Source: Bispira polyomma
Taxonomy: Eukaryota
Direction: 5' to 3'
NCBI GenBank assembly: GCA_965649765.1
Contig: OZ287749.1
Span: 20,770,001-20,834,000, forward strand
Length of the DNA stretch: 64,000 bases
Positions 10,327 to 13,300 of the stretch are shown one piece after another. A program made the translations under genes and the position numbers. Positions within the stretch are counted from its first letter, which is position 1. Every line of letters starts with the position of its first letter. The notes beneath the pieces are model-generated. The model had not been told where the DNA came from, made no database searches, and saw nothing but the letters and a program-made list of their open reading frames with translations.

Positions 10327-13300
10327 GCTATATTCTGTATTTTCGGAGTGCCTTAATCTTTTGTTGGTGTCTGTGGTAAGTTACTGATAGTACTGTACTA
10401 AATCGATACAGTACTTAACAGTGGTTTATTGCTTTTCTCAGATCAAACAGCATATCCTTTGATACTATTATTTCAACATATTTCTGTTCGAATATCTTTG
10501 TTTATAACGTCCACTTTGTGTGTCTTGAATTAATATACCTTTGTCCCTTCAGGGGTTCAGTTTTGCGTTTAAAATATCAAGTCTTTTGAGTTGTTTAATT
10601 GGGAGGTTTTCTATTTGTGTTCTATTCGTTTAAACAGTTAAATTGACTGCAGAATCTGAATCTTTCTGATAAGTACATAATTTGGGGGGATGTGATTTAA
10701 ACACTCAACAGTAAACAGTTGTAATCAGCATGGAATATTTTAGCTATGTCATTTTTACTTGTTTTTTTTTTAAGATTTAAGTGTCGTTGTTAATTTGTAG
10801 CCAAGACAAGTTAATCATGCATCTTGGAACGGTTAAATACTATTGTGTTCTATTTATTTTCGGAATAGTGTCTACTTCGATACAACTAACCTGTTTGCAA
10901 ATCTGTACCAAAAACTAGGTGAATCCAGTGACAGATTGCATTTGTGTTTTTGGCCTAATTTACCTATTGTTCCACCTTCTAAATTGCTTTATGACTATTG
11001 AAGTTTATTGGAGTATTTTGTCTTCTATCAGTGGGGTGTTCACATGTTACATGAAGTTCAAAATTGGTACAAATATTCATTTGCTAGTGCAAGTGTGCAT
11101 CAGCAGTGTCGGACCTTGATTTAACTTCTTGAGTTATCACTGTTACCTTGAACAATTTGTGTTTAGACAACAGCTTTGAAACTAGAAACTACACATATTT
11201 ATTCAAATACCTGACCAAGGTTGGACACCTGCAACATCCTGTTCTGACCACATTTTGACCTTAGGAAATGACCTTAACAGCAAAATCTGGGAATATTTGT
11301 AGTTGTTGTTTAGATATTGTTTAGGATTTTAAATATTTCCCTGACTTTCTACAACTACTTCATCCTGTTGCTGTGGGGTTATACTTGCTGATTAACTTTT
11401 GAACATGTTGAGGTATAGTTTCAATTATAACACTGGATTGTTGTGAACTATCACCACACAATTATTACAGAATTACATCAGTTGTGACATTTTAGTAGAT
11501 GGAACTGCTTTTTGGTTTCCTCCATACTGCTTTTAACATACTCAAAACATGTCGGATATTGTATTGTGAAGTTGATGAAATAGGTTTCACACAATAAGCA
11601 ATGATGTTAGAACAACAATTACTCTATTGGTGACTTTAGTGTGCCTGTCTGTGTGTGGATACCTAACAGAAGTCATGGAATCTTTAATTCAAAAGAAGCC
11701 TTTGTTTTGCCAAGAAAAACTGCAGTCCTCTGAAAGGGGGTCGATATATCAGGATCTATTGTGCACTTCTTTGGAAATCTGATGTCCATCCATTGACCAT
11801 TGAAGGAACAGAATAAGTATCTGCTTTGATAATTGTCACTGAAAGTTGTTTAATACATATATTGTTGTCACTCTTTTACCATTCTAATTTCTCTCTGGCC
11901 AAGAGTAGTCGACATTTCTGGCAGTTAAATTTGGGGTTGTAGTAATACATGCTTTACATATATACATTTGGGTTTTTGAGAGTCTGTCTTTGTTAATTTA
12001 TTAATTAGCAAGGTATATTGCATTATTTTACATCATCGCTGTACCTAGTTGGTCTAATAAGTTCTCCTGGGAAGTCCTGTCTGTAGGTCAAATGTTCATA
12101 AGGTAATTTAGAAACCGAAGAAAACAATGAAATATTTGTGATATATTCTCATAAATCCTTGTTCATGTTATTTCTTGTTGCAAGTTCTATTTGTGGTCTC
12201 AGTATGATGCGATGTGAAATTCTGCAATCCTATTATTTTTTTTTCGTTTATAGGACATACAAACTAAGCTTAATGGTGTATGTATTTTTGTTTTTGTGCC
12301 ATTTAATGTTGCCTTTAAACTTGGAAATTATGCCATATATTAGCCTTCCAGTGGTGTTCAAACGTCACAAAATCCAGTAGTTGTCTCCAAGGGAGTTTGT
12401 CAACTATTGGGAACTCTGGCTTCGACTGTGTGTTTGTAAGGTTATACCTATGGGTAAGTAACTTTTGTTGTTCTGTTGTGACAAGTAGACAGCATGTTGA
12501 GTGGCTACTAGAAAGGGATTTCTGAACACAGAGGACCACAGGTATACAAGCATGGGTCTTTAGTTTTGTGCTGGGTATATATATATATTAGGACTGATCA
12601 CGGGTGAATGCTTGGTTTTCTTTGGCTGCCGATAGACTTTGACAGAAACATATCTCATGATAAATACCTAACACTTAATGTTTAATTTGTTCCAATTGAG
12701 TAAGTAACTCAAAGCAGTAAATATTTATAGCTAATTCTGTGTGTTGTGGTTTGTCAATCTCTTTTATTACAATCTCTTTTTTTTTTTTATAACAATTTTC
12801 TACAATTATATGAAGTAGCCTGCAATCTGAACAATGCTATTAATTCTGATAGGATTACTTCAAGGTGGTCTTGATGTCCATGACATTTGCTGTCAATATT
12901 GTGAAGTTTTAACCTGATTAGCTTAGACTCTGATGCTCTATCTATAAAGGGGATGTAGATACAGTGACTTGTTCAATTGGGAGGATTTTGCATTGCATCA
13001 AGGCATCTTCTTACATATTTCTGTGGCATATTTCAGTTTGGGTAAAGATATATAATGAAATCCATGGAGAGTACACTTGGCCATTTTCAACAAAGGTTTT
13101 TGATGAGTGCAATTTGTATATTTGCTTGGCTTTTATATAATATTTGTTTGTTACCTTTCCTGAGAGTACCATAAATTAAGCATTACCAAAGGGGGGGGGG
13201 GGGGGGCACATATTTTGTTGGTTTCACACTACTCCTTTTAACTTTGTGAGTATTTAACTTTAAGGTCAATTTTTTCTTTAGATTTTATCTTGTTCAGAAG

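Follow-up and report, generated by a model that had tools for sequence, protein, structure and literature searches.

A strong splice donor lying just behind the proximal poly(A) signal of an hnRNP M/MYEF2 gene of Bispira polyomma is enclosed in a predicted RNA hairpin of pre-miRNA size, together with a putative 66-nt intron. The composite element is real, locally improbable and placed at a likely poly(A) decision point; on sequence evidence any functional role is putative. The reading that we prefer, with a probability of roughly 0.4, is that a folded cassette of U1 site and splice sites controls use of the proximal poly(A) site and tags read-through RNA for NMD. If this is so, it would be a compact example, open to testing, of poly(A) choice, splicing and NMD being coupled by RNA folding within a 90-nt cassette, and possibly a stage between mirtron and canonical miRNA. 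The features are collected in Table 1, with positions counted in the window, that is the whole 64,000-nt stretch analysed, which sits on a 108-Mb contig of a genome totalling 1.035 Gb.

Table 1. Features at the 3' end of the hnRNP M/MYEF2 gene (positions in the window)
Feature	Position	Strand	Remark
hnRNP M/MYEF2 host gene	859..9718	+	mapping covers 10 coding exons in the window but not the 5' end
Proximal poly(A) signal AATAAA	10321..10326	+	sole A[AT]TAAA from the stop to 13796
Likely long alternative 3' UTR	10327..13795	+	hexamer-free, T-skewed, nearly repeat-free; judged from sequence statistics
GU-rich downstream element	10357..10376	+	doubles as 5' strand of the lower stem; base-paired in the extended fold
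Basal UG	10362..10363	+	-14 from 10376
Extended imperfect stem, two competing registers	10362..10452	+	-26.2 kcal/mol, z -3.0; pair probabilities
Predicted RNA hairpin, 24 bp, pre-miRNA-sized	10373..10432	+	folding; single genomic copy
Putative U2-type intron, 66 nt	10376..10441	+	donor 10376, branch-like 10414-19, acceptor 10441
CNNC motif	10448..10451	+	+17 from 10431
U12-type (AT-AC) donor-like 9-mer	10452..10460	+	directly 3' of the stem, 10 nt past the acceptor

The host gene had been assigned to hnRNP M/MYEF2 in the initial annotation, and the protein agrees with this. The exon chain gives a single open frame of 578 aa plus stop (9716-9718), the top matches are hnRNP M/MYEF2 proteins, the top named ones coming from gastropods, and an RRM_1 domain was detected. 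The gene is present in one copy per genome. Its nine introns span 381-1279 nt, and two of them, 3676-4226 and 8378-9656, both in frame, open with U12-type donors, with U12-like branch motifs near the acceptor of each. A third perfect U12-type donor 9-mer lies in intron 2 (2196-2204), away from the mapped exon ends, and is possibly a cryptic minor donor or a poison-exon site. The host introns also contain a very high-copy short interspersed repeat at 8483-8700, with a similar copy near 1290-1520. Reads from three runs, which behave as genomic DNA and are possibly the source of the assembly, covered the introns and gave one contig across 9126-13403 with no joint in 9650-13400. A retrocopy origin of the locus was rejected.

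The AATAAA claimed as the proximal poly(A) signal was found at 10321-26. The window from +26 to +55 downstream of it consists of 77% G+U with 11 GT/TG steps, and just 2 of 1441 background AATAAA hexamers had an equally strong downstream window. This downstream element supplies the 5' base of the extended stem, beyond which it continues into the donor. The 3469 nt that follow the signal hold no poly(A) hexamer, against a mean of 4.3 in shuffles (2 of 200 were as low); none of 216 random windows was equally hexamer-free, and the host introns have 3.4 hexamers per kb. The AT skew of the tract is -0.16, continuing the T-rich skew of the first part of the UTR, which is absent in introns, and the tract is almost without repeats whereas the host introns hold several. 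These statistics indicate that the gene is likely to have a short and a long 3' UTR, with the distal 3' end probably near 14170-14570. Thus the strong downstream element and the 3.47-kb hexamer-free tract put the cassette at the likely decision point between a short and a long 3' end, which ties it to poly(A) choice more closely than was first proposed. The tract behind the donor at 10376 looks exonic, so a role for this donor in feeding a long intron to a distant acceptor is disfavoured. A perfect 33-nt tandem duplication (13374-13439) is also present in the likely long 3' UTR.

Scoring of splice sites relied on matrices built from the genome itself, with 28 myosin exons and the host gene supplying 35 donors and 36 acceptors; the myosin training sites were picked by consensus near match ends, which biases the scores upward. 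The donor GTG/GTAAGT with its first intron base at 10376, the branch-like CTTAAC, the pyrimidine tract and the CAG ending at 10441 all lie where the initial annotation had placed them. The intron length of 66 nt is likewise correct, and the distance from the host stop, given earlier as about 660 nt, is 657 nt. In leave-one-out comparison the donor, at 10.0 bits, equals or exceeds 23 of 35 real donors (66%) and the acceptor, at 13.1 bits, 32 of 36 real acceptors (89%). Within 528 kb the candidate was the only donor-acceptor pair with 10.0/13.1 bits at 50-100 nt, while 9/10 bits gave two pairs. Other splice-like sites in the 3' region of the host comprise a weak donor at 9728, 9 nt past the stop codon, an acceptor at 10239 whose use would create a 136-nt exon enclosing the poly(A) signal, a further site at 10552, a second short donor-acceptor pair at 12103-12202 (100 nt) and two exon-like acceptor-donor pairs at 12253-12454 and 13505-13601. 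The candidate donor (10372-10384) shares 13 identical bases with the donor of host exon 8 (7894-7906), which is probably chance on top of the consensus.

The frequency of short introns was surveyed by mapping a mollusc myosin on four myosin genes, which gave 62 gaps, of which the 44 with near-contiguous protein coordinates were kept. The shortest of these 44 estimates were 181 and 275 nt. None of the 53 mapped introns (44 myosin estimates and 9 of the host) was shorter than about 180 nt, and the myosin matches themselves did not run through any short intron. Donor-acceptor pairs were not in excess at 60-79 nt in 1.08 Mb (13 observed, 13.2 expected), nor at 40-99 nt (35 observed, about 40 expected). 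An intron of 66 nt would be atypical for this genome, the sample being compatible with a short-intron class of a few per cent.

Folding reproduced the stem of about 24 bp that had been claimed for 10373-10432, with 24 bp, six of them G-U, and one 2x3 internal loop. Its energy is -20.4 kcal/mol (z -4.0), and 0 of 200 shuffles were as stable; the wider segment 10355-10455 gave z -3.17 against shuffled controls, in line with the proposed structure. The G-U pairs had been taken as a sign of an RNA structure rather than a DNA palindrome. They do favour the sense strand, but the reverse complement of 10373-10432 reached -14.8 kcal/mol (z -3.17), weaker yet above shuffles, and so the asymmetry is no proof of RNA structure. 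The upper 15 pairs had probabilities of 0.96-1.0 in every context tried, except for one at 0.77. The lower stem can switch to another register, which sets the donor against the pyrimidine tract and the CAG against the end of the exon; in a context of 130-260 nt this alternative is about as likely as the 24-bp register. The hairpin matches the genome once at E <= 10 and has single-copy depth, and derivation from a MITE or other repeat was ruled out by its single genomic copy.

Masking of the donor, another claim of the initial annotation, was borne out in that its opening costs 8.2 kcal/mol with the full hairpin, with 1 of 35 real donors as closed; before the 3' arm is transcribed the cost is 3.4 kcal/mol. 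The companion claim for the branch point needs a correction, the putative branch A at 10418 being unpaired in the internal loop (paired probability 0.01) with only its flanks paired. Opening of the branch region costs 12.4 kcal/mol (2 of 28 real sites as high), and that of the tract and AG 4.5 kcal/mol, which 18 of 28 real sites equalled or exceeded, so that the accessibility of the tract and AG is ordinary. The downstream element requires 6.7 kcal/mol, as the stem covers this element too.

These predictions suggest how the preferred poly(A) switch might operate. The predicted hairpin would cage the strong donor right behind the proximal poly(A) signal and set the share of short and read-through RNA. 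By the folding prediction the donor and branch region would be closed and the pyrimidine tract and AG open, and the donor could easily be opened until the 3' arm has been made. U1 bound to the briefly open donor, or bound after a protein has opened the stem, would suppress the proximal poly(A) site. The read-through RNA could then lose the 66-nt intron, and the junction, which would fall 657 nt past the stop and beyond the 50-55-nt NMD criterion, would mark it for decay. If the hairpin forms first, U1 would be excluded and the short mRNA made. hnRNP M prefers GU-rich RNA, and one may speculate that the protein, by binding the GU-rich tract, completes a feedback loop; that the excised intron yields a mirtron-like small RNA as a by-product is likewise speculative. 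Which way the poly(A) site would be affected is uncertain because the stem also covers the downstream element. Counting against the switch, GU-rich sequence by itself favours GT donors, G-U pairs and UG, short introns were absent (0/53), and some 300 chance coincidences are to be expected genome-wide, as follows.

A hairpin scan of 1.208 Mb, made up of 54 spread-out 10-kb pieces and the window on both strands, gave 475 miRNA-like hairpins (393 per Mb). At thresholds of at least 7 bits for donors and at least 8 bits for acceptors, which were chosen after the site was seen, 10 of the 475 had a donor at the base and 11 an acceptor, and the candidate alone had both. The chance expectation is 393 hairpins per Mb x 9/474 x 10/474, or about 0.16 per Mb and about 300 genome-wide. 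Among 1500 simulated 3' UTRs of 4.1 kb, a pair at 7/8 bits occurred in 253 and one at 9/10 bits in 23; none had a donor-acceptor pair together with a donor-anchored hairpin. These figures bear on the strongest of the rival explanations, itself unlikely, in which the proximal poly(A) site and long 3' UTR are real and the hairpin and splice motifs are an unused coincidence of GU- and U-rich sequence. The commonness of miRNA-like hairpins, the 300 or so predicted cases with both sites, the frequency of 7/8-bit pairs in the simulations, the apparent rarity in this genome of introns this short and the selection of the site from a very large scan all speak for it. The scarcity of 9/10-bit pairs and the lack of any with a hairpin speak against it, as do the exact overlap of the cassette with the poly(A) downstream element and the joint presence of UG and CNNC in only 8 of the 475 hairpins. 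Given a rate of about 0.16 per Mb and a scan of very many windows, chance stays a rival. If the cassette is indeed chance, a two-ended 3' UTR would still be likely, though ordinary.

The UG and CNNC motifs belong to a Drosha frame that the initial annotation had missed. The precursor frame 10376-10431 is 56 nt long, with a 2-nt 3' overhang, 20 of 22 5p bases paired and 11 nt between the arms; its energy is -17.3 kcal/mol (z -3.4). In size, arms, pairing and loop it agrees with the MirGeneDB criteria of a precursor of about 60 nt, 22-nt arms, about 19 pairs and a loop of at least 8 nt (PMC11701709, in extract). Six conserved miRNA precursors of the same genome, whose cut sites were set from structure with a possible error of 1-2 nt, range from -14.7 to -24.5 kcal/mol, with z from -2.2 to -5.7 and 16-20 bp. 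Second among the rivals, and also unlikely, is a Microprocessor substrate cut by Drosha at 10375/76 and 10431/32, giving a lineage-specific miRNA and/or the end of the long transcript; its source would be the read-through RNA, with the 5p arm favoured and with competition from the overlapping splice sites, as in SO-miRNAs. The energy, z and pairing of the precursor, all within the range of the six controls, and the UG at -14 and CNNC at +17 in frame are consistent with this; both motifs were present in 8 of 475 hairpins (candidate included) and in 1 of the 6 controls. A start at 10377 would give U at positions 1 and 9, a bias described in the available part of PMC11701709, and Drosha cleavage at SO-miRNAs has been proposed to terminate transcription (PMC6097652, in extract). 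The extended fold has 28 bp, against 27-34 in the controls. Its lower stem, however, is the weakest of the set (-22.3 against -23.4 to -34.1 kcal/mol in the controls) and is split between two registers. Of two kinds of motif that are frequent in canonical miRNAs though not required, an apical UGUG is absent from the candidate loop, and of the CmR/GHG features the C at -5 is present but U replaces the purine at +5. Rfam gave no gathering-score match near the cassette, and in 9700-14000 no miRNA family matched at E values up to 10. The two strong splice sites would also need a separate explanation.

Among conserved miRNAs, mir-2, mir-71, let-7 and one of the mir-10/100 family are present in the genome; mir-2 is a protostome marker, and with the gastropod protein matches this points to a likely lophotrochozoan. 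A control search for mir-92 gave no match and is uninformative. The mir-10/100 precursor, which lies beside let-7 (locus L127, 8114-8196, minus strand), has a long loop with 24 unpaired nt and a precursor of about 70 nt. A snoRNA identity of the candidate was rejected, the matches being weak, sub-threshold and located elsewhere. The arm sequences were found neither in a literature search, with subscription papers and most supplements outside it, nor in one MirGeneDB 3.0 supplement file, which may not list sequences.

By end stability the 5p arm would be favoured. Dicer measures off about 22 nt, and with a 5p arm of 22 nt counted from the donor G the 3p start falls at 10408-10409, not 10407. 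Thus the 3p arm proposed earlier, from 10407, misfits a precursor starting at the donor G, and 3p would be an unlikely guide. The seed starting at 10407 may resemble miR-101 and the 3' arm miR-12*, likenesses that were set aside. Seed sites are not enriched in the host UTR, with 0-1 site per seed against 0.3-0.7 expected. Mammalian Dicer counts from the 5' end (PMC4556696, in extract). The geometry of a 3'-tailed mirtron that had been claimed was recovered in the intron-only fold (z -2.62), where G10376 pairs with U10429 and an unpaired tail of 12 nt, 10430-10441, leads from the hairpin to the acceptor. A mirtron with the small RNA as its main output, in which the spliced and debranched intron is shortened by about 10 nt before it is diced, is nevertheless a doubtful reading, less probable than Drosha processing. 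The donor G at the hairpin base and the unpaired tail fit the definition in the available text of PMC4556696, and the intron length is within the usual range. Set against these are the absence of short introns among the 53 mapped, a donor more closed than 34 of 35 real donors, the probable cost of splicing to the mRNA via NMD, and a host UTR without seed enrichment.

The predicted 5' Drosha cut falls exactly on the donor, so that one pre-miRNA could arise by splicing or by Microprocessor. It is very improbable, though conceivable, that the locus uses both routes to the same pre-miRNA and acts as an autoregulatory poly(A) switch. Four machines would then compete within the 90-nt element, at the poly(A) downstream element, the U1 donor, the foldable 66-nt intron and the Drosha frame, with a U11 site adjoining.

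That putative U11 site, the 9-mer at 10452, had been missed by the initial annotation; a weaker copy lies at 10492. The U12-type donor 9-mer occurs 13 times in 1.08 Mb of background and four times in the host gene, as two used donors, the copy in intron 2 and the one abutting the stem. U11 bound at 10452 might compete with the caged U2 donor or activate an upstream acceptor, which would make the site a minor-spliceosome sensor and tie the U12-intron-containing host to minor-spliceosome levels. The rarity of the 9-mer in background, its four copies in the host and the weaker copy point that way. We regard such a sensor as the least probable of all the readings, the motif being just 10 nt from the acceptor and no convincing U12 branch site and acceptor being found downstream. 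The arrangement resembles the USSE of U11-48K and U11/U12-65K in that a U12-type donor follows a U2 acceptor within a 3' region that has alternative ends. The USSE is a tandem repeat, however (PMC5473595, in extract), and in the candidate a single full motif stands 10 nt past the acceptor, followed 40 nt on by a weaker one.

Two parallels for the preferred switch are viral. The HIV-1 5' poly(A) site is suppressed by a donor 195 nt downstream, and in foamy virus a structure over the donor has been proposed to block U1 and permit polyadenylation (PMC3694450, in extract). The candidate shares with both a donor near a poly(A) signal and with the latter an RNA structure over that donor; as far as the excerpted account goes, it differs in lying in a cellular 3' UTR, with a donor that stands only 55 nt past the signal and merges with the downstream element, and with an acceptor 66 nt on, and U1 control is here putative. 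The hairpin of Drosophila miR-1017 pairs its own donor and weakens splicing (PMC10853799, in extract). Like the candidate it begins at the donor and leaves an unpaired tail to the acceptor. In that account retention of the miR-1017 intron brings a premature stop, 8 bp separate the branch point from the hairpin, and reads and conservation are reported, whereas the candidate, known from sequence alone, lies in a 3' UTR, has its branch motif inside the 3' arm and overlaps a poly(A) downstream element.

TDP-43 and SFPQ autoregulate through 3'-UTR splicing and NMD (PMC6547761, PMC12179342, both in extract). The candidate is likewise in a gene for an RNA-binding protein, with splice sites far past the stop and a proposed coupling to poly(A) choice; unlike the introns in the available parts of those accounts, it is a putative micro-intron wholly folded into a pre-miRNA-like hairpin. 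For human HNRNPM the same extracts give only a low-confidence predicted skipped coding exon as autoregulation. SO-miRNAs such as miR-34b also have a Microprocessor-motif hairpin over splice signals with a branch motif within it (PMC3794580, PMC6097652, both in extract). On those partial descriptions the candidate is distinguished by covering both splice sites and by a predicted Drosha 5' cut that coincides with the donor, its small RNA being putative. The literature searched, which excluded subscription papers and most supplements, gave no description for the hnRNP M family of an intron in the 3' UTR, a mirtron or a poly(A) switch. None of 12 general papers brought up by a search on mirtrons in annelids and molluscs contained the word, which is weak evidence of absence.

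Conservation was examined in metagenome contigs, where the two-arm hairpin pattern had 0 matches. The 61 homologue loci found there are distant, with best segments mostly at 40-60% protein identity, and showed no 3'-UTR similarity beyond T-runs. Among these loci 37 had a 3' region that could be used; a stable donor-anchored hairpin was present in 0 of the 37, which gave one weak fold (-10.2 kcal/mol) and are too distant to decide.

Elsewhere in the genome, three near-identical myosin exons with near-identical flanks (L013, L014 and L015, on contigs C11, C8 and C13) reflect either recent duplication or assembly redundancy. The remainder of the window contains two near-identical facing tRNA genes, 22004-22075 (+) and 23220-23291 (-), whose anticodons differ and are read as proline, a CFAP141 exon at 29568-29690 (+), and Sema and Ig domains at 38289-38660 (-) and 44043-44417 (-) that likely belong to a semaphorin gene.
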